Shown: positions 38,582 to 55,866 of the stretch, in pieces
Layout of the letters: the number at the start of each line of letters is the position of its first letter
Position numbering within the stretch: position 1 is the first letter of the stretch
Origin: an uncultured Gammaproteobacteria bacterium
GTDB lineage: Bacteria > Pseudomonadota > Gammaproteobacteria > JASBUN01
Direction of reading: 5' to 3'
NCBI GenBank assembly: GCA_963762165.1
Contig: CAVXJN010000003.1
Location: 288,694-352,693 of the forward strand
Length of the DNA stretch: 64,000 bases
Notes under the pieces: model-generated
What the model was told of the DNA's origin: nothing
The model's database searches: none
What the model saw: the letters and a program-made list of their open reading frames with translations, nothing else
Translations under genes and position numbers: made by a program

Positions 38582-39445
38582 ATGGCGCTCGACGAAACCT
38601 GGTTCAGCGAGCCCTGCGAAGAGTGCGGGTCTGCGTTTTCACTGCGGATCAACGAAAAATTGCACGACGAGCAAACGCCGTACCAACGGATCGAAGTGTA
38701 TTCGACCGCCAAGTTCGGCAATCTGATGGTGATCGACGGCTTCGTGATGCTCACGGACCGCGATAATTTCGTCTACCACGAAATGATGAGTCATCCGGCG
38801 CTGTTCACGCACAACGACCCGAAAAAAGTGGTCATTATCGGCGGTGGCGACTGCGGTACGCTGCGCGAAGTGCTCAAGCACAGTGGTGTCGTGGAAGCCT
38901 GGCAGGTGGAAATCGACGAACGCGTCACCCGCGTGTCGGAACAATATTTCCCAGCTTTGTGCGACGCCAATGACGATGCGCGTGCGAACTTCTACTTCGG
39001 CGACGGCATCCAATGGATGAAGGACGCCGAGCCCGGCAGTATTGATGTCATCATCATCGACAGCACCGATCCCATCGGTCCCGCCGAAGGACTGTTTTCG
39101 GAACCCTTTTATCGCGACTGCCACCGCGCCCTGCGCGACGGCGGCATCCTGGTGCAACAAAGTGAATCGCCGTTGTTCCACATGCGCATCATCAAGCCCA
39201 TGCACAAGGCGATGCGCGCCGCCGATTTCCAACACACACGAACACTCACCTATCCCCAGTGCAGCTATCCTTCCGGCTGGTGGAGTTCGACCATGGCGCG
39301 CAAGAACGCCGATCTGGAAAATTTTCGTGAACAGGACGCGAAGCGGCGCGACTTCGAAACCCACTACTACAACGCCGACATACACCGCGCGGCGTTTGCG
39401 GCGCCTGAATTCTTCAGGCGGGAACTCGCCGAATACCTGAAATGA
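38582..39445 (+). CDS. speE: Spermidine synthase (polyamine aminopropyltransferase)
   Basis: GGGDCGTLREVLKH, DIIIIDSTDPIGP motifs. 287 aa. Confidence 0.9.
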   Translation: MALDETWFSEPCEECGSAFSLRINEKLHDEQTPYQRIEVYSTAKFGNLMVIDGFVMLTDRDNFVYHEMMSHPALFTHNDPKKVVIIGGGDCGTLREVLKHSGVVEAWQVEIDERVTRVSEQYFPALCDANDDARANFYFGDGIQWMKDAEPGSIDVIIIDSTDPIGPAEGLFSEPFYRDCHRALRDGGILVQQSESPLFHMRIIKPMHKAMRAADFQHTRTLTYPQCSYPSGWWSSTMARKNADLENFREQDAKRRDFETHYYNADIHRAAFAAPEFFRRELAEYLK

Positions 39446-39448
39446 CGC

Positions 39449-40259
39449 TCACACCGGCGGCTTGCGCAAGCGTTCCAGGCGCAACCGCTGGCGCTCGTCG
39501 AACAATCGCCGCGAGGCGATATAAACCGCACTCAAGGTGCCGAAGCCGGTTCCCGCGGCGATCAGGAACATGATCATGATCTGGTACTTCACCGCTTCCA
39601 CCGGCGGTGCACCCGCCAGAATCTGACCGGTCATCATCCCCGGCAGACTGACCACGCCGGCCGCCGCCATGGCATTGATGATCGGCAACATACCGCTGCG
39701 CGCGCTGTCGCGGCGAATGTCCTCGATTGCCCGGTTCCAATCCTCCCCCAGGGTCAGCCGCGCTTCGATCACCCGTCGCTGTTGCCAAGCGGTCTGACTC
39801 AAACGGTCCAGGCCGAGGGAGACGCCGTTCATGGTGTTGCCCAGCAACATGCCCAGCAACGGTATCGCGTACTGCGGTTCGTACCAGGGCTGCACCCGTA
39901 TCACCACGGTCAACGCCAGCAGCGTCACACTGAATGAAGACACGAACATGGCCAGGGTGCCGACTCCGAACCCCCACCAGCCGGCCAGGCGATAGCGCTG
40001 GCGCACCATGACCTCGCGCGCCGGCGATCAACAGCATGGCCAGGGCGATGAGACTGATCCAAACCAATTCGACACGGGCGAACACCGCCGTGAGCACCAG
40101 TCCGATCAGGAGCAATTGCAATGTCGTGCGCAACGCAGCGATGAGCAGGGTGCGCTCGACACCGAGACGCAACCGCAGTGACAAAAGCGCCAACGCCAGC
40201 ACCAGTACCGCGGCCAGCGACAGGTCCCAGGCGGAAAGCTGTACCAGGCCCACCGTCAC
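39449..40259 (-). CDS. fetB: Iron export ABC transporter permease FetB (YbbM/UPF0014 family); frame interrupted by a 1-nt deletion near 40017
   Basis: N-terminal part (ORF 39414..40259) ...LIALAMLLIAGAR shifts frame to ...VMVRQRYRLAGWW...VSLPGMMTGQILAGAPPVEAVKYQIMIMF (ORF 39449..40009). Junction lies in a gcgcgcg repeat. ATGA overlap with upstream fetA. Confidence 0.7.
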
Positions 40260-41362: not shown

Positions 41363-42670
41363 TTACAGGTTGTAACCGCGTTCGTCGTGAAGGGCAATAT
41401 CGAGGCCTTCGACTTCCGCTTCTTCCGAGACCCGCAGACCGATGATCACGTCGATGACTTTGAGTATGATCAGCGTCATGACAGCGGTGTAGATCAAGGT
41501 CGCCAGGATGCCGATGATCTGCACGCCGACCTGCTGGCCGATGCTGGTGATGTCGCCGCCAAAGCCGGCACCGCCGAGGCTCGGTGCACAGAACACACCG
41601 GTCAGCAGGGCGCCGATGATGCCGCCGACTGCGTGCACGCCAAAGGCGTCGAGGGAGTCGTCGTAACCGATGGCGCGTTTGACCTTGGTGGCGGCGATGA
41701 AACAGCCCACACCGGCAACGAGGCCAATGATCAACGCGCCCATTGGACCCGCAGTACCGGAAGCCGGGGTGATCGCGACCAATCCGGCAACCGCACCCGA
41801 TGCCACACCCAACACACTGGGCTTGCCGTGTGACAGCCATTCGCTGAACATCCACCCCAGCGCCGCAGCTGCGGTGGCGATCTGAGTCACAGCCATCGCC
41901 ATACCGGCGACACCGTCCGCAGCCAGTTCGGAACCGGCGTTGAAACCGAACCAACCGACCCACAGCATGGAAGCGCCGATGACGGTGAAATTCAGATTGT
42001 GCGGCATCATCGGCGTTTCCGGATAACCGCGGCGCTTGCCCAACACCAGGGCTGCAACCAAACCGGCGATACCCGCGTTGATATGCACCACCGTGCCGCC
42101 GGCGAAGTCGAGAATGCCTTTACCGCCGAGCCAGCCGCCACCGCCCCAGACCCAATGGGCGATAGGCGCGTACACCACAAGCAACCAGATACTGATGAAC
42201 CACAGCAACGATGAGAATTTCATGCGTTCGGCAAACGCGCCGACGATCAGCGCCGGGGTGATGATGGCGAAGGTCATCTGGAAGGTCATGAACACGGTTT
42301 CCGGAATCGTGCCACTGAGGGTATCGACCCCGACCCCTTTGAGGAACATTTTCGACAAACCGCCCCAATAGAGACCGTCACCGCCGAAGGCGATGCTGTA
42401 GCCGGCGATGGCCCACAGCACGGTGACCAGCGCGGTGATGCTGAAACATTGCATCATCACCGACAGCACGTTCTTCGAGCGCACCATGCCGGCGTAGAAC
42501 AGCGCGAGGCCAGGGATGGTCATCAACAGCACCAGCGCCGTTGCGGTCAGCATCCAGGCGGTATCACCGCTGCTAAGCGTCGGCGCGTCTTCCGCCAATG
42601 CCAGTGCCGGCACAGCGGCTGAGATTGCCCCGACTACGACCGGAACTGCGAAACGTTTGTAAAAACTCAT
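41363..42670 (-). CDS. amtB: Ammonium transporter AmtB
   Basis: Signal peptide, DTAWMLTATALVLLMTIPGLALFYAGMVRSKN, 11 TM helices, GxxAGxVA and twin-His regions. ATG ~16 codons inside track ORF 41363..42718. Confidence 0.9.
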   Translation of the reverse strand: MSFYKRFAVPVVVGAISAAVPALALAEDAPTLSSGDTAWMLTATALVLLMTIPGLALFYAGMVRSKNVLSVMMQCFSITALVTVLWAIAGYSIAFGGDGLYWGGLSKMFLKGVGVDTLSGTIPETVFMTFQMTFAIITPALIVGAFAERMKFSSLLWFISIWLLVVYAPIAHWVWGGGGWLGGKGILDFAGGTVVHINAGIAGLVAALVLGKRRGYPETPMMPHNLNFTVIGASMLWVGWFGFNAGSELAADGVAGMAMAVTQIATAAAALGWMFSEWLSHGKPSVLGVASGAVAGLVAITPASGTAGPMGALIIGLVAGVGCFIAATKVKRAIGYDDSLDAFGVHAVGGIIGALLTGVFCAPSLGGAGFGGDITSIGQQVGVQIIGILATLIYTAVMTLIILKVIDVIIGLRVSEEAEVEGLDIALHDERGYNL

Positions 42671-42692
42671 TTTGATTCTCCTCCCCACCCTG

Positions 42693-43043
<351 letters not shown>

Positions 43044-43088: not shown

Positions 43089-43814
43089 TTAGAGTTCTTT
43101 CGATACCGTGAAGACCACGCGACTGTCGCAAAGATTGCTACCGCCGAAGCACTCCGATTTCGAAAGATCGGTGTCTACCCAGTCGAGCGCCAGACCGAAG
43201 CCTGCAATGTCCTTGGAGACGCCGACCTTGTAGTCGGTGTAGTCGGGCGTACCGAAGGTGGCGTTGTCGTCGATGGTCTGATGACCGACGTGAAAGTTGA
43301 CGCTGAATGCAGCCGGCAACGGTACCGCGAGGTCCGCGTAGTAATAGGTAGCTTTGTCCGACGAAGCAAAAAAGTCAGGCGAGTAGTACACACCTACCGT
43401 CACCGCCGCGGCGCCGAAGTCATAGGCCAGCGACCCGCCGATTTCGGTGTAGTCGTAGTTCAGAGAATTGCTTGCACCCGGATAGAGGTAACGCAGCACG
43501 CTGACGTCATACGACAGGGCGTCGTTGATTTTGCCCGCAAAACCGCCATAGATATCGAGCTCCATGGACGCCGGATCCACCATTGAGGAGTCCTCGCCAA
43601 ACTCCAGGCTCGAAGCCCAGGTCCCCACATAAAACCCGCTGTCGTGCACGTAGTCGAAACCACCCTGCACTGCGGGGTCTTCGTTGGTTTGGGAAATGCC
43701 CCGAAATATGTAATCGGACGTCAGCGCGACGTTGCCGCTGAACCCGGCCTGGGCCCCGGTGCCGGCACTCACCAGCACGACCCCCACTGCAACACTGGTC
43801 ATCAGCTTCTTCAT
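43089..43814 (-). CDS. TIGR02001-family outer-membrane beta-barrel protein (frequently linked to glnK-amtB)
   Basis: Signal peptide MKKLMTSVAVGVVLVSAGTGAQA. Alternating hydrophobic beta-strand pattern, C-terminal aromatic residue. Confidence 0.65.
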   Translation of the reverse strand: MKKLMTSVAVGVVLVSAGTGAQAGFSGNVALTSDYIFRGISQTNEDPAVQGGFDYVHDSGFYVGTWASSLEFGEDSSMVDPASMELDIYGGFAGKINDALSYDVSVLRYLYPGASNSLNYDYTEIGGSLAYDFGAAAVTVGVYYSPDFFASSDKATYYYADLAVPLPAAFSVNFHVGHQTIDDNATFGTPDYTDYKVGVSKDIAGFGLALDWVDTDLSKSECFGGSNLCDSRVVFTVSKEL

Positions 43815-45940: not shown

Positions 45941-46455
45941 GGCGCGGATCGACTTTCGACGTTGTCCGGTATCCGACCCGCACCCAGTGCCGCGCCGACG
46001 ACGCCGAAGGCAATGCCGCAGCGCCGGCACCGACGTGGCGACCGGTCGACCACCGATTAACGGGTGAGCCAGGACTTGGCGCGCACCGTCAACACCGCGT
46101 AGGGAAAGATCCAGAACAGCAACAGCGTCGAGTAGTAGGCGCGCCGGCACGACCGGGGAGGACAACGCGTCGGGGACGCTCTCGCCAGACATAGCGGTTC
46201 TCTTCAAAGGTCAAAGGGGAGAGCCGGCGAAACAGGTCGCGCCGTGGGGTGGACTGCGCGGGGAACCGCCGGGCCATACGGCCGGTGAGACTAGCACCAC
46301 GCGGCGGTTTGCAAAGGGACTGTTGGGCGTTGCCGACAGAGAAAATTTTCAAGCCGCTGGGGAGGTGTCGAAGCGGGCGCCTGCAGCGGGTCGCCGACGG
46401 CCATTGCGCAGCGCGTGTGCAATGGCCGACAGATGCGACGGAATGGATTGGGCTG

Positions 46456-48468
46456 CTATGCCGCCCAGCCGAGGGCGTCGGCCCGTTCCCGGGCAAGCTT
46501 CGGGATGTCGGTCTCGACGAAACTGGCGTACATGATCTGCACCCCGAGCATATGGTTGATGACCGCGTCCAACTGCACCTGGGTCGAACTGCTGGTATCG
46601 GGATTGTCGTGCAGCGCGAACAACGCTTTCACGCCAGCGGGATCGAGCAGCCCCGCGTCCTGCAGTTTCTGATCGGACAGGTATTCGTCCGCCAGGGCTC
46701 GCATGGCGGCCCATTTTTTCGGATCGGTATGGGCCGGGGGCGCCATGAAGGCGAACTTTTCCCGTTCGTACAGCACCCGCGGCAGCACTCCCTTCATGGC
46801 TTCGCGCAGCACGTATTTTTCGGTGCGGCCCTTGATGCGCATGGACGGCGGCACCTGCGTGGCGTACTCGGCCAAGTGGTGATCGAGAAACGCCGGCCGC
46901 GCTTCCATGGAGTTGGCCATGTCGACCCGGTCACCGCCCCAGGTCAGGATCTGGCCTTCGAGCTGGGTCTTGATCCAGACGTACTGCGCCTTGTCGAGGG
47001 GATGACGGCCCTCGATCATGTCGCCGTCCATGGCCTCGGCGATCGCCCGTCCCGGTTCGTAATCCTGCAACGCCTTACGATGGCGCTCTGCCAGCAGGCC
47101 AGGAACGTGGGTCGCCGAGGCGAGCCAGGGCTGCAGGCAGGAAGGCGTAAAGCCGACCAGACTGTCCAGTGCCGGGTCGTGCAATTCGTTCTCGGCCAGC
47201 ATGGCGCCGCGGAACAGCTTGTTGGATTCCGCCAGCATCTGTTCCCAGGTGGCACGCTCGCCCTCGGACAAGGTATCCAGACCGTGCAGGAACATGTCGC
47301 GCCGGAACGCCGGATAGCCGGCGAACAGTTCGTCGGAGCCTTCGCCCGTAACCACCACTTTGTAGCCGGCCTTGTTGACGTGGCGGCTCATCAGCATCTT
47401 GGCGACGCCGAGGGTGTTGTAGATGGTGCGCTCGGCGTGCCAGATGGTTTCGACGAAATTGTCGTACAGGTGGCTGGCGTTGAGCATCATGATGTCCTGA
47501 TCGGCGCCTACCGATTCGGCCATCTCGCGGGCAATGGCCGTTTCATCGTAGTCGGCGTCGTCGAAGCCGATGGTGAACGCCTTGACCGGCGACTGCTGGG
47601 CCGCCGCCGACAAGCCGAGAATGGAACAGGAGTCGATGCCGCCGGACAAGTAACACGCCACCGGCACGTCGGCTTCGAGGCGCAGGTGCACAGCCCGCAT
47701 CAACCGCTCGCGCACCTGTTCGATGTAATGCTCTTCGGGTTGGCTTTCGTCGCGCTCGTTCATGAGCGGAAAATCCATGTCCCAGTATTTGACTTCTCGG
47801 ATTTGAAACTTGCCGTGGGCGCGCTCGACGATCAGTGCGTTGCCCGGCTGCACCTGGTGCACGCCTTCGAAAGGCGTACTGCCCGGGACGATGGTTTGCA
47901 TCAACTGGTGATACACACCTTGGGGCGAGAACTTGCGCGGCACATCGGGATTGGCGAACAGGACCTTGAGTTCCGAACCGAACACCAACGTGCCGTTCGC
48001 TTCCGCCCAATACAGCGGTTTGATGCCGAAGCGGTCGCGGATCAGCATCAACCGGTCATGCTGCTTGTCGTACAGTGCGAACGCGAACTCGCCTCGCAGG
48101 TGGGTCATCATGTCTTCAAGACCGAACTTGGGATACAGATGCATCACCAGCTCGGAATCGCTCTTGGTGCGAAAGCGCGCGCCGGCCAACGTCAGCTCGG
48201 TGCGCAGTCGCTTGTAGTCGTAGAACTCGCCATTGTGCGCCAGCATCAGATTGCCGTCTGGAGACATAAAAGGCTGCTTCGCGCGCTCTTCGTTGAGGTC
48301 GATGATCGACAGCCGCGCATGGCTGAAGCCGATGCCGCGCTCGTCGATGGTTTTGTAGCCGAAACCGTCAGGGCCGCGGTGATACTGAATGGCCGCCATG
48401 GCCACCAGCGTTTGCGGGTCCACCGCGCGTGACGCGTCGGCGTGGATGACACCTGCGATACCACACAT
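46456..48468 (-). CDS. Asparagine synthetase B-family glutamine amidotransferase (class II GATase + adenylating Asn_synthase domain), 670 aa with C-terminal extension
   Basis: N-terminus MCGIAGVIH (Cys2 nucleophile). CYLSGGIDSCSILGLSA PP-loop SGGxDS. Confidence 0.8.
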   Translation of the reverse strand: MCGIAGVIHADASRAVDPQTLVAMAAIQYHRGPDGFGYKTIDERGIGFSHARLSIIDLNEERAKQPFMSPDGNLMLAHNGEFYDYKRLRTELTLAGARFRTKSDSELVMHLYPKFGLEDMMTHLRGEFAFALYDKQHDRLMLIRDRFGIKPLYWAEANGTLVFGSELKVLFANPDVPRKFSPQGVYHQLMQTIVPGSTPFEGVHQVQPGNALIVERAHGKFQIREVKYWDMDFPLMNERDESQPEEHYIEQVRERLMRAVHLRLEADVPVACYLSGGIDSCSILGLSAAAQQSPVKAFTIGFDDADYDETAIAREMAESVGADQDIMMLNASHLYDNFVETIWHAERTIYNTLGVAKMLMSRHVNKAGYKVVVTGEGSDELFAGYPAFRRDMFLHGLDTLSEGERATWEQMLAESNKLFRGAMLAENELHDPALDSLVGFTPSCLQPWLASATHVPGLLAERHRKALQDYEPGRAIAEAMDGDMIEGRHPLDKAQYVWIKTQLEGQILTWGGDRVDMANSMEARPAFLDHHLAEYATQVPPSMRIKGRTEKYVLREAMKGVLPRVLYEREKFAFMAPPAHTDPKKWAAMRALADEYLSDQKLQDAGLLDPAGVKALFALHDNPDTSSSTQVQLDAVINHMLGVQIMYASFVETDIPKLARERADALGWAA

Positions 48469-48537
48469 ATCGGTCTATTAACCTCTCTTCGTGATTAGGA
48501 GTTGGCCCGGTTGCGTCGCGCGCGCCGGACGTAGCGC

Positions 48538-49639
48538 TCAGCCGCCGTTGGGGGTGTCCATCACTTGATGGATGCGCTGAGTAAGGGTCGTTAGCAATGC
48601 CATGCGCACGAACACCGCACCGCGGGCCTGGGCGAAGTACCAGTTGTGTTCGGTCTGGTCCAGATCCGTGGACAATTCCTGCGCCCCGCGCCAGCGGATG
48701 CAGAATGATGGCGCCTTTCTTGAACGGCGATGACGCGGACAATCGCAACCGTTCCCCGAGTTTGACGTAGGTATCGCCGACCCAGGCAATGGAATTGATA
48801 TAGGCCACGTCCAGCCCCGGCAGCTCGTCGTCCAGGTTGGCGCTGATCCGCATACGCAGTCCGGCCTGCTCCAGTTCCTCGCGCTGACCCGGATCGAAGT
48901 TTTCCTCGGCTTCGCTGATGAGCACCACCTCGTCGATGGAATTGGCAAACAGCGCCAGGAACATCAAAAGACTGCGCACGGTACGCATGCGGCTGGGTAC
49001 CCCGATGATGCCGACCCGGGCACGCTTTGCGGGCTCAAGGTCTTGCTGCAGCAGTTCGGGGCGCCATTTGAAGATGGTGTACATGTCCGCCAGTGCCTGG
49101 GTCGGATGTTCGTCGATACCGTTGCCGGCATTGATGATCGGGATGCGCAGCTGCTCGAGCATTTCGTAGACGGCACTTTCGCTCGAGTCGCGCAGCACCA
49201 CCAGGTCGCCGTAGTTGTTGAACATCTCCGCCACATCGCCCATGGACTCGCCTTTGGCGATACCTGTACTGGACGGATCGGTGATGGACATGATGTCGCC
49301 GCCGAGCCGGTGCCAGGCGCTTTCAAATGACAGCCTGGTGCGCGTGCTCGGCTCATAGAACGCGCTGATCAGGATTTTGCCGGTGAGCGGCAGCTGAATC
49401 AGCGCCGGCGTGGTTTCATACAATGCCGCCAAACGACACAACTGCATGGTCTTGTCGCGATCGAATTGCCGGGCCGAGACGATGGGCCGGTGCGCCAGGT
49501 CCACCAGCGGCTCCGGATCTTCGGCGATGTGTTCGAGCAGTTGCTTGGGCCGCTCGAGACCGGCAGTCCAGTCTTTGGGCTGCACGGGTTCCTTCAATAG
49601 GGGATCGAGGTCTTTCACCAGAGTGTTCCTTGTCGCCAA
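48538..49639 (-). CDS. Aspartate carbamoyltransferase (PyrB)-like paralog with ~45-50 aa N-terminal extension; frame interrupted by a 1-nt deletion near 48683
   Basis: RPIVSARQFDRDKTMQLCRLAALYE aligns with the PyrB N-terminus ([24 protein letters not shown]). STRTRLSFE, HPTQALAD, ILHPLARGA|QELSTDLDQTEHNWYFAQARGAVFVRMALL motifs. C-terminus is encoded in ORF 48538..48948. TTG start at 49639 is uncertain. Confidence 0.65.
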
Positions 49640-49743
49640 TCGCGCAATACCAGCCAGAGCAGCACGATGGGGCTCAAAATCGTGAAACCGACCATCACGG
49701 TTACAAGGGTAGTCAGAAAACCAATGGATGCTGTCATGATCAT
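49615..49743 (-). CDS. 42-aa small membrane protein ATGA-coupled to the SSF transporter (DUF3311/DUF4212-like symporter small subunit)
   Basis: MIMTASIGFLTTLVTVMVGFTILSPIVLLWLVLRDWRQGTLW has one TM helix. GGAGG RBS. ATG overlaps the SSF stop codon. Confidence 0.45.
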   Translation of the reverse strand: MIMTASIGFLTTLVTVMVGFTILSPIVLLWLVLRDWRQGTLW

Positions 49744-51176
49744 TCCTCCCGGGGCGCTTCGCAGAGCATCGCCCAGTCGAAATCGCGGGGCCAGATCCAG
49801 GTCACCAGCAGCAGCACCCCCATCGAAACCGTGGCGCCGGTCAATGCGGCCGCATAGAAGCCGACGGTGAAATACGCCGTCAGACCGCTGGCCGTGCCCA
49901 GCACCATGCCCAGCCATGCGCCGGCGGGATTTACCTTGCGCCAATACAAGCCGGCGGCGATGGGCCAGATGGTGCTGGAGACGAATGCACCCATGAAATA
50001 CAAAAGCGCGCCCAGCGTGCTCACCCGCGGATAGCAGATCAGCCAGGTCAGTACGCCCAGAGACAGCGTGATCAGCTTGGCAGCGATACTCAGTTCGCGG
50101 TTGCTGGCATCGGGCCGGAAGTGGCCGCGATAAATGTCCTGGGTCACCAGATCGCCGGTGGCGGCCAACAGCGAATCGAGACTGGAGGCCAACGCGGAAA
50201 ACACGACGATGAACACCAGTACAGCGCCGGTGACACCGAGCAGATGCGCGGCCACCAACGGTCCCACCATGTCCGCAGCCGGCACGTTCAGATGCAACGC
50301 CGGTGCCGCCAGGGCAACGAAGCCGGCGACGATGGGAATCGGAATCCACATCAGTCCGGCGGTCATGTAGGCTTTGAATCCAACACCTTTTCGAAAAGCG
50401 AACGCACGGCTCCACCAGACGTTGGAATGAAAAATCTCGCCGACGCCGAACAAAAGATTGTTGAACAGGAACATGATCGCTGCCGGCATCAGAAGATTGA
50501 GCAACTCCGGCCGGCGCTGGATCACCGTGTCGTGCATTTGGTCGAACCCGACCTTGTCGATGGTCAACCAGGCCAGTACCGCAACGCCCACCAAGATCAG
50601 AACGGTCTGAATGAAGTCGGTGCCGATTACCGCGCGCAGGCCGCCGAGCAGCGTGTAGGCGACGCAGATCACCAGAATGACGGTCATGCCGATGTGATAG
50701 TCGATGCCGGTGAGGGCGTTGATCAGCACACCGCCGGCCATGCCGAGACTGATCAGCCAACCGAAGGCGTAACAAAGCGAGATCAAAAGAAAGACGCGCC
50801 AGGCAGTGTTGCCGTAGCGAATGCGGATGAAATCGCCACTGGTATAGCCGCTGGGCATCAGGTCGTGGATGCGCCGCGCCAAGGGCGCGAACAACATCAG
50901 GCCCACCGACCCTAGCGAAAATCCGACCATTCCCCAGATGCCCAGTTGCAGCGCCATTTGCGGCGCCACCATGGTGGTGTTGCTGGTCACCCAGGTGGCC
51001 ATGGAGGTGGCGACCGCCAGGGCGATGCCGACGTTGCGGCCGGCCAGCATGTAGTCGTCCAGGCCGCTGGCACGCCGCCCCCAGTACCAACCCAGAAATA
51101 CCCACAGGACGCTGAAGATTGCGAGTATGGTCCAGCCGATATTCGGGTTCAGGATGGCGTCGTTGACGCCATTCAT
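49740..51176 (-). CDS. Sodium:solute symporter family (SSF, PutP/PanF/ActP-like) transporter
   Basis: ~479 aa, 13 predicted TM helices, SSF signature regions (GRNVGIAL..., ...GLRAVIGTDFIQ). ATGA overlap with the upstream hydrolase gene. Confidence 0.8.
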   Translation of the reverse strand: MNGVNDAILNPNIGWTILAIFSVLWVFLGWYWGRRASGLDDYMLAGRNVGIALAVATSMATWVTSNTTMVAPQMALQLGIWGMVGFSLGSVGLMLFAPLARRIHDLMPSGYTSGDFIRIRYGNTAWRVFLLISLCYAFGWLISLGMAGGVLINALTGIDYHIGMTVILVICVAYTLLGGLRAVIGTDFIQTVLILVGVAVLAWLTIDKVGFDQMHDTVIQRRPELLNLLMPAAIMFLFNNLLFGVGEIFHSNVWWSRAFAFRKGVGFKAYMTAGLMWIPIPIVAGFVALAAPALHLNVPAADMVGPLVAAHLLGVTGAVLVFIVVFSALASSLDSLLAATGDLVTQDIYRGHFRPDASNRELSIAAKLITLSLGVLTWLICYPRVSTLGALLYFMGAFVSSTIWPIAAGLYWRKVNPAGAWLGMVLGTASGLTAYFTVGFYAAALTGATVSMGVLLLVTWIWPRDFDWAMLCEAPREE

Positions 51177-51910
51177 GCCGCCACCACTCGGGTGATCTCC
51201 TGTATGGCTTCGTCGGCGCTCAATACCCGCGCATAACGATCGCGAATGGTGTTGATGGTGGCGTTGTGCAGCGCCGGCGTCACCGTCGCGCAGGCGTCGT
51301 CGATCAGCGTGGTGTGGAAGCCGAGATCGCAGGCATCGCGGATGGCGGTATCGACGCACTCGTTGGTGTAGACACCGCAGATGAACAAACCAGTGACACC
51401 GAGATTGCGCAGCACATATTCCAGGTTGGTCGAATTGAATACGCCGCTGGCGGTTTTGTTGATGACGATTTCATCGCCCACGGGTGCTACGGCCTCGATG
51501 AATTCGGCCTCTTTGGAACCGGGCGGCGCATGCAGGTTCAAGCGCTTGTGGCCTGGGCCGCGGTCACGGCCGTCGCGGGTCATGGACTGAATGCGGGTGT
51601 GGATCACTTCCAGATCATTGGCCCGGAACGCGTCCTGCAGCTTGCGGATATTGGGGAACACGAAATGGTCCAGGCGATCGAAATAGTATTCGACCGCTTC
51701 CGGGGGTACGCCGGATTTTTCCACGTCCGCAAAAACGCCGTGGCCGCGCGCGGCGTCGAGATATTGCACATCGATCACCAGCAGCGCCGTGTGATGAGTC
51801 TTGAGGGATTTGACCACCTTCGGATGTTCGGCGATCGCGCCCCGGTAACTCTCGCGCAGCGGGTCGACGTTGAGATAAGCGGGCTCCAACGGCTTGCGGT
51901 CTTCAGTCAT
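51173..51910 (-). CDS. Isochorismatase-family cysteine hydrolase (N-carbamoylsarcosine amidase / RutB / biuret hydrolase-like)
   Basis: TALLVIDVQ (Asp), K at INKTASG, and nucleophile Cys in GLFICGVYTNECV fit the isochorismatase catalytic triad. Confidence 0.75.
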   Translation of the reverse strand: MTEDRKPLEPAYLNVDPLRESYRGAIAEHPKVVKSLKTHHTALLVIDVQYLDAARGHGVFADVEKSGVPPEAVEYYFDRLDHFVFPNIRKLQDAFRANDLEVIHTRIQSMTRDGRDRGPGHKRLNLHAPPGSKEAEFIEAVAPVGDEIVINKTASGVFNSTNLEYVLRNLGVTGLFICGVYTNECVDTAIRDACDLGFHTTLIDDACATVTPALHNATINTIRDRYARVLSADEAIQEITRVVAA

Positions 51911-51922
51911 GGATGCTTCTCA

Positions 51923-53164
51923 CTAGCTGGCCAATCGATAAAGCGTGTTGAGCAATACATTGGCGCCGTTCTCGATGTCTTCCCACGGCGTCCATTCCGC
52001 TGGAGAGTGACTGCGGCCATCCTTGCTCGGAACGAACACCATGCCGGCCCGGGTCAGCGACGCCATCATCTGGGTATCGTGGGCAGCACCGCTCGGCATC
52101 ACCAGGCTCTCGGCATTCAGGCTGCGCGCCGATTCCTGGATGATCTGGACGATGCCCGGATCGCATTTGACCGGCGCGATTTCCGACAGCACTTCGAATT
52201 CGAACATCAGGCCGCGGCGGCGGCCGATCGCGGAAATGGCCTTGCGAAAAGCGTGAGACAACTGCTCCAGCACTTGCGGGTCAGTGTCGCGCACTTCCAG
52301 GGAAAACTCGGCGCGACCGGGAACGACGTTGGCGGCACCGGGTTTCAGCGCCACGCGACCGATGGTGGCGACGCTGCGGGCACTGCCGTCTTCTTCCAAA
52401 ATGCGCGGAATTTCGCCGCCCAGTTCCGCCAGGCCCTGAAACGCGTCGTTGCGCATGTCCATGGGCGTGGTGCCGGCGTGGTTGGCAGTACCGATCAGAT
52501 GCACGTCCCACTTGAACAGACCGGCGATGCCCTCGACCACACCGATGGGCAGGTGCTTGCGGTCCAAAACCGGCCCCTGCTCGATGTGCAGTTCGACAAA
52601 CGCGTGCACGCTCTCCGGAGTGCGCCGCGCCCGTAACGCGTCGATGGCGTTCAGACCGCGCTCGGCCATGGCGTCCACCAGGGTGACGCCGTTCAGATCG
52701 CGGGCGTTATAGATCTTTTCCGGCGTCAGTTTGCCGGCGATGGCCTGTGAACCGACCATACCGCCGAAGCGGCCCTCCTCATCAGTGAACGCCACCGACT
52801 CCAAAGGATAGCGCAATGGCAATTGCAGTTCCTTGAGCCGGCGCACGCACTCCAGGCCGACCACCACGCCGAGCGCGCCGTCCAGGTGCCCGGCGCCGGG
52901 AACGCTGTCGAGATGGGAGCCGGTCATGACGCTGGGACGCTCGCCGTCCCAACCCAAGCGGCCGTAGATATTGGCGGCGCCGTCCACATGCAGGTCCAGC
53001 CCTGCCTCCTCGATCCGCGCCCGGAACCATTCGCGACCGGCCATGTCGCCGTCGCTGAAGGCCATGCGATAGACGCCGTGATCTTCGCGCCGGCCGATAT
53101 TGCCGAGGGCCTCGACATCACGTTGCAACCGGTCGAAATCGACTTTTAAAGGTCCTTCGGTCAT
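51923..53164 (-). CDS. M20-family Zn-dependent amidohydrolase (N-carbamoyl-L-amino-acid hydrolase / allantoate amidohydrolase / beta-ureidopropionase family)
   Basis: GSHLDSVPGAGHLDGALGVVVGLE, FTDEEGRFG (metal-binding D/E), HAGTTPMDMRNDA. ~413 aa. Confidence 0.8.
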   Translation of the reverse strand: MTEGPLKVDFDRLQRDVEALGNIGRREDHGVYRMAFSDGDMAGREWFRARIEEAGLDLHVDGAANIYGRLGWDGERPSVMTGSHLDSVPGAGHLDGALGVVVGLECVRRLKELQLPLRYPLESVAFTDEEGRFGGMVGSQAIAGKLTPEKIYNARDLNGVTLVDAMAERGLNAIDALRARRTPESVHAFVELHIEQGPVLDRKHLPIGVVEGIAGLFKWDVHLIGTANHAGTTPMDMRNDAFQGLAELGGEIPRILEEDGSARSVATIGRVALKPGAANVVPGRAEFSLEVRDTDPQVLEQLSHAFRKAISAIGRRRGLMFEFEVLSEIAPVKCDPGIVQIIQESARSLNAESLVMPSGAAHDTQMMASLTRAGMVFVPSKDGRSHSPAEWTPWEDIENGANVLLNTLYRLAS

Positions 53165-53658
53165 CCATTCCCCTTGTGATTCGACTTCAGATTGCCGCCG
53201 ACCACCAGCCCGAGGGTTGCCAGAAACACGCCGGCACCGACACCGAAAAAGGTCCATGCGCGGCCCAGGCTGTGGTGTTCGACGGCGATTTGGACGCTGT
53301 CGCTCCAGGGTCCGGGCTGGCCGTTCTCCGGATTCAGGCGCACCCGGTAGTAGTACTGGCCGTCGGTCCGGCCACTTAACAGGGAGGCGCGGTCGGGACC
53401 CTGATACAAGGTCCGCGGCGCGGTGAAGTCCGCGTTCTGCGCTTCCTGGAGTTCGAAACGACGGTTGTCCGACTGCGGCCAGTCCCAGGTGAGGCGGTAA
53501 TATCCCGCAGTTGCTACGGTGGTATCGGTGTGCAGGGTCGGTACATCCGCGCTCGCAGCCAGCGGCCAGCCCCCGAAAAAGAGCAGCAACAAGAGCACAT
53601 TCCGGTGTCGGACGCGAGCCTTTGACGCGCGCCGCCGGACTGAATTCGGTTCGCCCAT
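53161..53658 (-). CDS. Exported fibronectin type III-like domain protein with signal peptide and C-terminal TM anchor; first gene of the operon
   Basis: Signal peptide ...LLLLLFFGGWPLAASA. FN3-like strands GYYRLTW...YYYRVRL. C-terminal helix AWTFFGVGAGVFLATLGLVVGG. ATGA overlap with the M20 gene. Confidence 0.5.
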   Translation of the reverse strand: MGEPNSVRRRASKARVRHRNVLLLLLFFGGWPLAASADVPTLHTDTTVATAGYYRLTWDWPQSDNRRFELQEAQNADFTAPRTLYQGPDRASLLSGRTDGQYYYRVRLNPENGQPGPWSDSVQIAVEHHSLGRAWTFFGVGAGVFLATLGLVVGGNLKSNHKGNG

Positions 53659-53868
53659 GGCACGATACTTTTGTGACAAACGATTTTGTACAATAACATT
53701 TCCACGCTGCCGTTTCACCCCGGCAATGGCTCTGCCGACACCGCGCTTCGTGCCTAAGCTCTTGCTTAATAGGCAAAACTTTCCGGCGTCTCGGGTGGTT
53801 CGCGAGATGACCGGGGTGCCCTTACGCTGCTACAATGACCGACCTTCGCACTACCCGAATCGAATTCC

Positions 53869-55866
53869 GTGTCCAAACTCAATGCACGCCAGGCGGCCGC
53901 GGTCGAACATGTGGACAGCCCGCTACTGGTGCTGGCCGGCGCCGGCAGCGGCAAAACCCGTGTCATCGCCCAAAAGATAGCCCATCTGATCCGCACCCGG
54001 CGCATGGAGCCCCGGCACATCGCGGCGGTGACCTTCACCAACAAGGCTGCCCGGGAAATGAAGCAGCGGGTCCAGGGCCTTTTGGGGGCGGATGCCAAAG
54101 CTGTGCGGATTTCGACCTTTCACACCCTGGGGCTGGAAATCATTCGACGCGAGCATCATCGGCTCGGTTACAAGCCCGGCTTCACGATCTTCGACAGCCA
54201 GGACAGCGCCGCGCTGCTGCATGAGCTGAGTCGCAAGGAAATGCCACTGCCGCAGGATCAGGAACAGCGCCTGCGCTGGCAGATTTCGCAATGGAAAAAT
54301 CAATTCCTGTCCCCGCAGCAAGCGCTGGCCGGCGCTGCCGACGGCCAGGAACACGGCGCCGCTAAGCTCTACGAGCGCTACAACCATTTTCTGAAAACCT
54401 ACAATGCGGTGGATTTCGACGATCTGATCTCGCTGCCGGCAGCCCTGTTCGCCGAAGACACCGAAGCGCTCGGCGCCTGGCGCGAACATATCCGCTATCT
54501 CCTGGTGGACGAATACCAGGACACCAACGCCGCACAGTACGAACTGGTGCGCATGCTGGTCGGTAAGCGGGACGGTTTGACGGTGGTCGGCGACGACGAT
54601 CAATCGATTTACGCTTGGCGCGGCGCGCGGCCCGAAAACCTGCGGCAATTGGCGGTGGACTTTGCCGGGCTCAAGGTCATCAAGCTGGAGCAGAACTACC
54701 GCTCGGCGGGGCGCATTTTGCGGGCGGCCAACACGCTGATCGCCAACAACGGCCATCTGTACGAAAAGCGGCTTTGGAGCGAGCTGGGGCCGGGGGATCC
54801 GATTCGCATTCTGGAATGCCGCGACGGCGACCACGAGGCCGAACGGGTGGTGGGTCAATTGCTCCACCACCACTATCGCCACAAGACGCAGTTCCATGAC
54901 TACGCCATCTTGTATCGCGGCAACCATCAGTCCCGCGTGTTCGAGCGCGCTTTACGCGAACACCGCATTCCCTATCACCTGAGCGGCGGCTCGTCGTTTT
55001 TCGACCGCACCGAGATCAAGGATCTGATGGCGTACCTGCGATTGTTGGTCAATCCCAAGGACGACGCCGCGTTTCTGCGGGCGGTCAACACGCCGCGCCG
55101 CGGGATCGGACCGGGCACCGTGGAAAAGCTCACCGCGGTGGCGAATCGGGCGGGCGGCAGTCTTTGCGATGCCTGCTCCGGCCTCGATCTCGGGACGACG
55201 CTCGGCACCCGCGCCGCCGCCAACTTGCGCCAATTCGGCGCTTGGATCCGCAGCCTGTCAGAGGCGGCGGAAGCGGGCGAAATCACGGCAACGGTGCGCA
55301 AGTTGATCGTCGACATCGATTACGAAGAGTGGTTGCGCCAGCAAAGTCCGGATCCTGAATCCGCGCGCCGGCGGTGGGAGAACGTCAACGAGCTGCGCGA
55401 ATGGCTGGACCGCTCGGTACGGCAGGCCGCAGCCGAGGCGTCTTTGGGAGAGGTGTTGGCGCAAATGGCGTTGCTCGACGCGCTGGACCGGGATCAGGAC
55501 GACGCGGGCAATGCGGTGCATTTGATGACTTTGCACGCCGCCAAGGGGCTGGAATTCGATCACGTGTTCCTCGCCGGCATGGAAGAGGAACTGCTGCCCC
55601 ACCGCAACAGCATCGAGGACAGCCTCGAGGAAGAGCGCCGCCTGGCCTACGTCGGCATTACCCGTGCACGCAGAACGTTGACCATGACCCTTGCCGCCAA
55701 ACGCAAACGCTACGGCGAATGGCACGGCTGCGAGCCGAGCCGCTTCCTGGCCGAATTGCCCGCGGGGGATCTGGAATGGGAGTCCAAAGTCCCGGACGAT
55801 CCCGAAGAACGCAAGCAACGCGGCCAATCCCACCTTGCCCATCTGCGCAGCCTGCTGGCGGAATGA
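53869..55866 (+). CDS. rep: ATP-dependent DNA helicase Rep (UvrD/Rep family, superfamily 1)
   Basis: Close alignment to E. coli Rep along the full 665 aa: LLVLAGAGSGKTRVI, VTFTNKAAREM, YLLVDEYQDTN, VVGDDDQSIYAWRGA, LEQNYRS, RRLAYVGITRA. Confidence 0.85.
   Translation: MSKLNARQAAAVEHVDSPLLVLAGAGSGKTRVIAQKIAHLIRTRRMEPRHIAAVTFTNKAAREMKQRVQGLLGADAKAVRISTFHTLGLEIIRREHHRLGYKPGFTIFDSQDSAALLHELSRKEMPLPQDQEQRLRWQISQWKNQFLSPQQALAGAADGQEHGAAKLYERYNHFLKTYNAVDFDDLISLPAALFAEDTEALGAWREHIRYLLVDEYQDTNAAQYELVRMLVGKRDGLTVVGDDDQSIYAWRGARPENLRQLAVDFAGLKVIKLEQNYRSAGRILRAANTLIANNGHLYEKRLWSELGPGDPIRILECRDGDHEAERVVGQLLHHHYRHKTQFHDYAILYRGNHQSRVFERALREHRIPYHLSGGSSFFDRTEIKDLMAYLRLLVNPKDDAAFLRAVNTPRRGIGPGTVEKLTAVANRAGGSLCDACSGLDLGTTLGTRAAANLRQFGAWIRSLSEAAEAGEITATVRKLIVDIDYEEWLRQQSPDPESARRRWENVNELREWLDRSVRQAAAEASLGEVLAQMALLDALDRDQDDAGNAVHLMTLHAAKGLEFDHVFLAGMEEELLPHRNSIEDSLEEERRLAYVGITRARRTLTMTLAAKRKRYGEWHGCEPSRFLAELPAGDLEWESKVPDDPEERKQRGQSHLAHLRSLLAE

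Follow-up and report, generated by a model that had tools for sequence, protein, structure and literature searches.

Dedicated synthesis, degradation and recapture of a compatible solute are known from ectoine, where the genes concerned (ectABC, doe and Tea/Ehu, respectively) usually lie at separate loci. Carbamoyl-glutamine-amide (CGA) has been known since 1991 and was isolated from Ectothiorhodospira marismortui; the literature searched contained no assignment of genes or of a pathway to it, and a 2020 survey of phototroph genomes gives it only as a possible solute for species without betaine and ectoine genes. For N-acetylglutaminylglutamine amide (NAGGN) there is an osmotically induced operon, which comprises a MarR regulator gene (PA3458), asnO (PA3459), ngg (PA3460) and an aminopeptidase gene (PA3461) (PMC8070244). 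The subject of this report is an operon of seven genes in a 64,000-nucleotide stretch of DNA from an uncultured gammaproteobacterium (contig CAVXJN010000003.1 of assembly GCA_963762165.1, positions 288,694 to 352,693 of the forward strand; this whole stretch is called the window below). On the minus strand it encodes, from the first gene to the last, an exported protein with a fibronectin type III-like fold (FN3), an M20 amidohydrolase, an isochorismatase-like cysteine hydrolase, an SSF transporter, a small membrane protein, a carbamoyltransferase and an AsnB-like amidotransferase. The operon is undescribed, widely conserved and assembled from known enzyme families. Its transcarbamylase represents a new subfamily, and its SSF transporter is unusual in having three parts. 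The best explanation is that this conserved locus metabolises an N-alpha-carbamoyl amino-acid amide. That it serves to make, break down and take up CGA or a near analogue, in parallel to the MarR-controlled NAGGN operon, has about an even chance of being correct. As with ectoine, a compatible solute would then have its own synthesis, degradation and recapture, here with all three in one operon and by enzyme families unrelated to those of the ectoine systems.

An earlier, sequence-only reading of this DNA had listed seven consecutive minus-strand genes. All of them are present where it placed them (Table 1), except that the PyrB-like carbamoyltransferase gene is not one continuous open reading frame (ORF). 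The ORF listing and its translation agree on seven co-directional genes. When re-measured, the junctions matched those reported, with ATGA-type overlaps of 4 nt at FN3/M20, hydrolase/SSF and SSF/small ORF, and gaps of 12 nt between the M20 and hydrolase genes and 69 nt before the AsnB-like gene. The description of the unit as a combination of uptake, C-N hydrolysis (two enzymes of the ureido/carbamoyl kind) and synthesis (two enzymes) is also borne out. Pfam and NCBIfam back the family labels of five of the products and give no match for the first (FN3-like) and fifth (small membrane) proteins. The same reading did not recognise the combination as a described pathway, and no paper describing it was found in the literature searched.

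Conservation was assessed from a scan for the carbamoyltransferase family with one genome per species, which gave 450 loci. The best 80 of these were fetched and compared with the seven window proteins by tblastn, and the number of assessable loci differs from count to count. The full set FN3-M20-cysteine hydrolase-SSF-(small protein)-carbamoyltransferase-AsnB is found with its order kept in 48 of the 65 assessable loci, and the complete cluster is present in Nitrosococcus oceani. Two Leptospirales loci (L067 and L077) have all of the genes in the order FN3-SSF-small protein-carbamoyltransferase-M20-cysteine hydrolase-AsnB. The hosts are haloalkaliphilic sulfur oxidisers, purple sulfur bacteria, Nitrosococcus and some Leptospirales and Myxococcota. 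Such recurrence of gene content and order across dozens of species-level genomes far exceeds what chance would give. The AsnB-like gene lies at most 600 nt downstream of the carbamoyltransferase gene in 58 of 62 assessable loci. This junction never overlaps in the relatives (median gap 82 nt), so the doubt raised earlier over co-transcription of the AsnB-like gene was a fair one. In one metagenome-assembled genome (MAG) locus (L007, 9098..12172), the carbamoyltransferase gene is followed, in place of AsnB, by a gene for a protein of 1024 aa that has an animal haem peroxidase domain. A solitary carbamoyltransferase gene (67% identity) occurs in Thiorhodospira sibirica (L046, 8001..9056), with no other cluster gene within 8 kb; its neighbours there are patatin-like, lipid A acyltransferase and 2-oxoglutarate dehydrogenase genes.

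The enzymes M20-cysteine hydrolase-carbamoyltransferase-AsnB are found alone in ten loci, including all eight Ectothiorhodospira loci that reach past AsnB (a ninth, L038, ends just past the carbamoyltransferase gene). The FN3 protein is present in 53/53 loci with SSF and in 0/12 without it. The unit therefore falls into two modules, a core of four enzymes and an add-on of three transport proteins, because the core occurs without the transporter proteins and FN3 tracks SSF. The genome of strain DSM 4180, which is the type strain of E. marismortui, carries the core M20-cysteine hydrolase-carbamoyltransferase-AsnB (L029). Thus, the core is present in the organism from which CGA was isolated.

The carbamoyltransferase, when repaired for a frameshift treated below, has thousands of homologues and belongs to a tight family of 357-366 aa (67-95% identity) from Thiohalobacter, Nitrosococcus oceani, Ectothiorhodospira, Thioalkalivibrio, Thiohalophilus and many MAGs. 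A PF02729 match is obtained on the uninterrupted frame alone. The PDB entries that match the protein best are aspartate carbamoyltransferases (ATCases; 130-150 bits), and its homologues are publicly annotated as aspartate carbamoyltransferase. In all known ATCases the 240s loop carries the motif RxQxER, in which R229 and Q231 bind the beta-carboxylate of aspartate, and the alpha-carboxyl is bound by R167 and K84 (PMC4581275). The carbamoyl-phosphate motifs EPSTRTRLSFE and DEHPTQ, aligning with S52-T55, H134 and Q137 of the Escherichia coli enzyme, are invariant in 24 members of the family, and the equivalents of STRTR, K84, R105, HPTQ, R167 and L267 are retained. The family resembles PyrB and UGTCase in its fold, its carbamoyl-phosphate site (STRTR/R105/HPTQ) and its alpha-carboxylate ligands (R167/K84). 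It differs from them in the aspartate motif, where RxQxER is replaced by Y-I-N-S/A-I-A-W-V-G, with Ser or Ala at R229 and Ala at Q231 (24 aligned sequences, one with Cys at the Q231 position). It also differs in reading HPLAR instead of HPLPR or the H(T/S)LP of UGTCase, in an N-terminal extension of about 45 residues, and in its scores, which fall under every ATCase equivalog cut-off (TIGR00670, 184.7 vs 236.95 bits; NF002032, 177 vs 263 bits). The extension (residues 1-45 of the repaired protein) lies outside the region aligned to solved ATCases and has invariant positions, for example P11, G20, E22, P24, L27 and L38.

Judged by these sequences, the carbamoyltransferase is not PyrB and is a distinct transcarbamylase subfamily of the ATCase branch, because the aspartate motif is absent and the equivalog cut-offs are failed. 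Housekeeping pyrB is ruled out as its identity by motif and cut-offs, in line with the sequence-only reading. UGTCase, an ATCase-branch enzyme of purine catabolism that carries H(T/S)LP (transcarbamylase review), is ruled out by the HPLA motif together with the gene context in six annotated neighbourhoods. The suggestion that the operon is centred on aspartate chemistry does not hold up against the replacement of R229 and Q231 in all 24 aligned members; aspartate is an unlikely substrate because the equivalents of these residues are lost. Its most likely acceptor is the alpha-amino group of an amino acid with a side chain unlike that of aspartate. The characterised transcarbamylases listed in a 2015 review include none that acts on glutamate or glutamine, and N-carbamylglutamate synthesis figures there as an engineering goal.

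The M20 protein belongs to the hydantoinase/carbamoylase amidase family (PF01546; TIGR01879, 379.5 bits vs a cut-off of 204; NF006771, 541.6 vs 399 bits) and passes an NCBIfam subfamily model named allantoate amidohydrolase. Its best solved relative is a Geobacillus L-carbamoylase (N-carbamoyl-L-amino acid hydrolase; 3n5f, 290 bits), with which the metal and substrate ligand motifs HLDSV, DEEG, HIEQG, NV.P, R.D and AAHD align. The top NCBIfam equivalog is the N-carbamyl-L-glutamate amidohydrolase ErtE, but the score is below its cut-off (393.8 vs 520 bits); on these scores the protein is related to ErtE and is not its ortholog. It is proposed to be an N-carbamoyl-L-amino-acid decarbamoylase. 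The family and the closest structure are shared with hyu and allantoate amidohydrolase systems. However, no hydantoinase, racemase, NCS1 permease or allantoin-pathway gene lies nearby, and the M20 gene is coupled here to synthetic enzymes. The cysteine hydrolase (PF00857, 118 bits) does not reach the equivalog cut-offs of BiuH and RutB; its nearest solved relatives are cysteine hydrolases, namely biuret hydrolase, N-carbamoylsarcosine amidase and RutB. The catalytic triad is conserved (Asp in VIDVQ, Lys in INK and Cys in TNECV, aligned with YecD and 6xix), and the enzyme is proposed to be an amidase acting on a terminal carboxamide or ureido group. The AsnB-like protein passes TIGR01536 (417.8 bits vs a cut-off of 267) and has both the N-terminal Cys nucleophile (MCGIAG) and the PP-loop (LSGGIDS). 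Against the model of the NAGGN enzyme AsnO (TIGR03104) it scores 313.8 bits, below the cut-off of 570. We propose that it forms a carboxamide.

In the transport module, the SSF protein (PF00474, 112 bits) has DUR3 urea-proton symporters as its best solved relatives (125 bits, vs 63 for SGLT1), which would fit a substrate with a ureido or amide group. It differs from DUR3 in being 478 aa long, vs 704-773 aa, and in being encoded with a 40-aa membrane protein and an anchored protein of FN3 fold. The SSF gene overlaps the hydrolase gene by 4 nt in 41/53 loci. A small ORF is conserved between the SSF and carbamoyltransferase genes in 41 loci (38-100% identity). Its start is probably the second ATG (49737), which gives 40 aa and has GGAGG 6 nt upstream; the relatives are annotated as 40 aa. 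The product is proposed to be a subunit of the transporter. Weak Pfam fn3 matches were found in 4 of 19 homologues of the FN3-like protein. In an AlphaFold model of the window protein (pLDDT 84), residues 41-127 form a beta-sandwich, with one helix before it at the N-terminus and another after it at the C-terminus (131-162), and the top Foldseek matches of the model in the PDB are FN3 domains (target-normalised TM about 0.7). The confident model thus places an FN3 sandwich between a signal helix and a transmembrane helix at the C-terminus. The FN3 gene had been thought an unusual opener for a metabolic operon. It instead strictly co-varies with the transporter gene, lying beside SSF even in the rearranged Leptospirales, and because of this tracking the protein is regarded as part of the uptake module and proposed as an accessory subunit.

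From the gene content and residues observed, we infer the pathway chemistry and every substrate assignment as follows. The carbamoyltransferase would carbamoylate L-glutamine at its alpha-amino group, with carbamoyl phosphate as the donor, giving N-carbamoyl-glutamine. The AsnB-like enzyme would adenylate the alpha-carboxylate and amidate it with glutamine-derived ammonia to give CGA, as AsnO does in NAGGN synthesis. In the reverse direction, the cysteine hydrolase would strip the 1-amide from CGA, after which the M20 L-carbamoylase would strip the carbamoyl group to return glutamine. The four enzymes would thus form a closed cycle in which carbamoyl and amide groups are each added and removed, with two forward and two reverse steps and none missing. 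Uptake or recapture of the ureido solute would fall to the DUR3-like symporter, its 40-aa subunit and the periplasmic FN3 anchor protein. The compound would probably be an endogenous metabolite, because the core persists without the transporter in Ectothiorhodospira and other lineages. It is possible, though somewhat short of an even chance, that the operon holds the first natural glutamine N-alpha-carbamoyltransferase along with a three-part DUR3-like uptake system that includes an FN3 accessory protein.

The NAGGN operon is similar in several respects. In both operons an AsnB-type enzyme amidates an alpha-carboxylate and a second enzyme caps the alpha-amino group (both putatively so here), and a metallohydrolase is encoded as well. 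In both, too, only some genomes have a MarR-type regulator adjoining the cluster. Both solutes, if the product here is CGA, are uncharged glutamine derivatives in which the alpha-amino and alpha-carboxyl charges are masked. The N-capping enzyme differs, being a carbamoyl-phosphate-dependent transcarbamylase here and a GNAT/ATP-grasp enzyme in NAGGN synthesis; no such gene (ngg) is found in the cluster. An M20 enzyme stands in place of the glutamyl aminopeptidase, and the cysteine hydrolase and the dedicated transporter module are additional.

Several observations weigh against CGA as the product or against the proposed cycle. CGA is described from one organism only, as a minor solute (PMC3857566). 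Given at least 450 species-level genomes with the cluster, either CGA has been widely overlooked or the product is a different compound. Synthesis and degradation within one tightly coupled operon imply a futile cycle unless there is post-translational control. The substrate identities derive from family membership and a few residues, and the carbamoyltransferase gene is frameshifted in the window. No marR gene lies beside the cluster or elsewhere in the 64-kb window, and the window itself has no osmolyte-related neighbours; such neighbours are found in only 19 of 88 loci, a raw count without a background rate. The literature searched yielded nothing on salt-stress expression of the cluster genes in Thioalkalivibrio or Nitrosococcus.

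A different carbamoylated and amidated small molecule, perhaps not an osmolyte at all (a nitrogen store, a signal, or the N-carbamoyl derivative of another neutral amino acid), is an unlikely product, though one to be taken seriously. The enzyme logic fixes only the class of compound, an N-alpha-carbamoyl amino acid with an amidated carboxylate. CGA is reported from a single organism, yet the cluster is widespread and extends to Myxococcota and a Methylomonas MAG, which are not known to be halophilic, and amtB and glnK lie near it in both the window and its closest relative. However, the literature found mentions no further natural product of this kind, the CGA producer has the cluster, and osmolyte-related neighbours recur across several genera. 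Catabolism or scavenging, for nitrogen, of a ureido compound taken up from outside (urea-like, allantoate-like or one of the N-carbamoyl amino acids) seems improbable. The carbamoyltransferase would then work phosphorolytically, like UGTCase or catabolic OTCase, and the AsnB-like protein would be an ordinary asparagine synthetase re-assimilating ammonia. This agrees with the allantoate amidohydrolase model passed by M20, with the DUR3-like transporter, with the place of UGTCase itself in the ATCase branch and in purine catabolism, and with an AsnB-like protein that passes the generic TIGR01536 and is separated by a gap from the upstream genes in nearly all loci. It is at odds with HPLA in place of H(T/S)LP, with six annotated neighbourhoods that contain no carbamate kinase or purine-catabolic gene, and with retention of the four enzymes where the transporter is missing. 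Furthermore, the AsnB-like gene stays clustered in the rearranged Leptospirales, and an ATP-consuming amidotransferase is unexpected in catabolism. It is highly improbable that the genes are unrelated neighbours, with the PyrB-like gene a housekeeping or decayed pyrB and the AsnB-like gene a housekeeping asnB. The frameshift in the window and the aspartate carbamoyltransferase annotation of the homologues would suit such an origin, but order and content are conserved in dozens of genomes from several phyla, and the carbamoyltransferase lacks RxQxER, fails the ATCase cut-offs and is intact elsewhere.

Upstream of the operon the window has a double dyad, TTGTACAA at 53693..53686 and TTGTCACAA at 53679..53671, which ends 12 nt before the first ATG. 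In relatives the element takes the form ATGTTATTGTACAAAA-N4-TTTGTGCAAAAAG and stands just before the first gene, 10-13 nt from its ATG. Written as TTGTACAA N7 TTGTGCAA, it precedes marR in nine loci (L014, L016, L018, L024, L028, L029, L032, L033 and L038). The gene behind it is marR in all Ectothiorhodospira loci, whereas in the window it is the FN3 gene; Thioalkalivibrio retains a shorter core. At least two TTG-N2-3-CAA sites occur within 900 nt upstream in 28/64 loci, vs a 6% background. The element may be a MarR operator, and its sequence may also be read as a sigma-70 promoter (-35 TTGTAC, 17 nt, -10 AAGTAT) that would give a nearly leaderless transcript. Gene callers at times translate through it, giving rise to an N-terminal extension (GNVIVQ..SQKY) that looks conserved but is an artefact. 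In simple scans, promoters and terminators were as numerous as in shuffled sequences. General sigma-54 control was considered and rejected: a GG-N10-GC motif lies at -79 in the window, but is found in 6/64 upstream regions vs a background of 11.6%. A histidine kinase, a 252-aa protein and a sigma-54-dependent regulator are encoded divergently upstream in Nitrosococcus oceani (L081, 2130..5714), the only species with this arrangement among the loci examined.

In about 39 loci the cluster is directly preceded by a marR gene of the same strand. As to the osmolyte-related neighbours, 12 loci have a divergent sucrose synthase gene upstream, 15 have a PfkB kinase gene downstream, and a BCCT transporter gene is nearby in four Thioalkalivibrio loci. 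An orthologous MscS channel gene follows AsnB directly on the same strand in six loci of different genera (57-91% mutual identity; Table 1), and is absent from the window.

The carbamoyltransferase gene had been read as a single ORF from 49639 to 48538, a span of 1102 nt that is not a multiple of three; the frameshift in it had been overlooked. Alignment with three relatives (L001, L002 and L003) places a single extra base at window position 48680, after which the frame is lost (following ...LHPLARGA). The frame from 49639 or 49618 continues as nonsense to 48368, and the conserved C-terminus (ELSTDLD...RMALL) lies in another frame that ends at 48538. Intact homologues are 357-366 aa long, the closest being 95% identical. 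The overlap with the small ORF stands, but its reported length of 25 nt, counted from TTG 49639, probably does not: the start is more likely GTG 49618, which forms a GTGA overlap with the stop of the small ORF and agrees with the N-termini of homologues. The corresponding 4-nt overlap is found in 29/41 loci.

An indel error in the assembly is plausible for the carbamoyltransferase gene, because a second gene in the window is also split. This gene, for a UPF0014/FetB-like permease (39414..40259, minus strand), is broken near 40010 into two frames that cover Pfam profile positions 2-72 and 77-242; in the closest relative it is intact (269 aa). Indel errors are a reasonable explanation of both frameshifts. 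A Logan contig from run ERR11594398 is 99.98% identical to window positions 53955..49239 and ends before 48680. Exact look-ups of the frameshifted product and of the AsnB-like product gave no match. Programmed frameshifting was judged unlikely, the three relatives being simply without the extra base. If the insertion is real, the synthetic arm would be inactive in the copy carried by this assembly.

Elsewhere in the window, the stretch 45941..46455 (about 515 nt, from a comM-like convergent gene to the AsnB stop) has no convincing ORF and, unlike the genes on either side, does not align at about 89% identity to the closest relatives. Some 3 kb further downstream, past the operon, the minus strand encodes an ammonium transporter (41363..42718), a P-II protein GlnK (42693..43031) and a putative porin of the Gcw_chp family (43089..43814). 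The porin segment is unmatched in L001 and aligned in L002, two relatives about equally distant from the window. An Rfam gathering scan of the whole window found one tRNA only, and no riboswitch or other known RNA.

Table 1. Features of the operon and its upstream region in window coordinates, with the MscS genes of related loci in the coordinates of each locus.
Feature	Position	Strand	Basis
FN3-fold protein, exported, C-terminal membrane anchor, 165 aa	53161..53658	-	AF2 model, Foldseek
M20 amidohydrolase, hydantoinase/carbamoylase family, 413 aa	51923..53164	-	PF01546, TIGR01879, NF006771
Isochorismatase-like cysteine hydrolase, 245 aa	51173..51910	-	PF00857
SSF transporter, DUR3-like, 478 aa	49740..51176	-	PF00474
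Small single-helix membrane protein, 42 aa (40 aa from ATG 49737)	49615..49743	-	Conservation in relatives
ATCase-branch carbamoyltransferase, 359 aa when repaired, 1-nt insertion at 48680	48538..49618	-	PF02729, homologues
AsnB-type glutamine-dependent amidotransferase, 670 aa	46456..48468	-	PF00733 + GATase_6/7, TIGR01536
AT-rich double-dyad element, candidate promoter and/or MarR-type operator	53671..53693	-	Conservation upstream of first gene
MscS channel gene, L018	11339	+	
MscS channel gene, L019	11226	+	
MscS channel gene, L035	7245	+	
MscS channel gene, L047	11491	+	
MscS channel gene, L086	14731	+	
MscS channel gene, L087	13475	+	

The locus is a concrete and testable candidate for an orphan osmolyte pathway. 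Whether or not the product is a different one, it defines a conserved, undescribed pathway with an unusual three-component SSF transporter. If it is the CGA locus, the pathway could be tested directly with four enzymes, the transcarbamylase family would gain a new substrate class, and the aspartate carbamoyltransferase annotations of the homologues would need correction. Many soda-lake and marine autotrophs would be expected to contain carbamoylated glutamine amides, and a solute supposed to belong to a single organism would in fact be widespread, with the cluster present in at least 450 species-level genomes.

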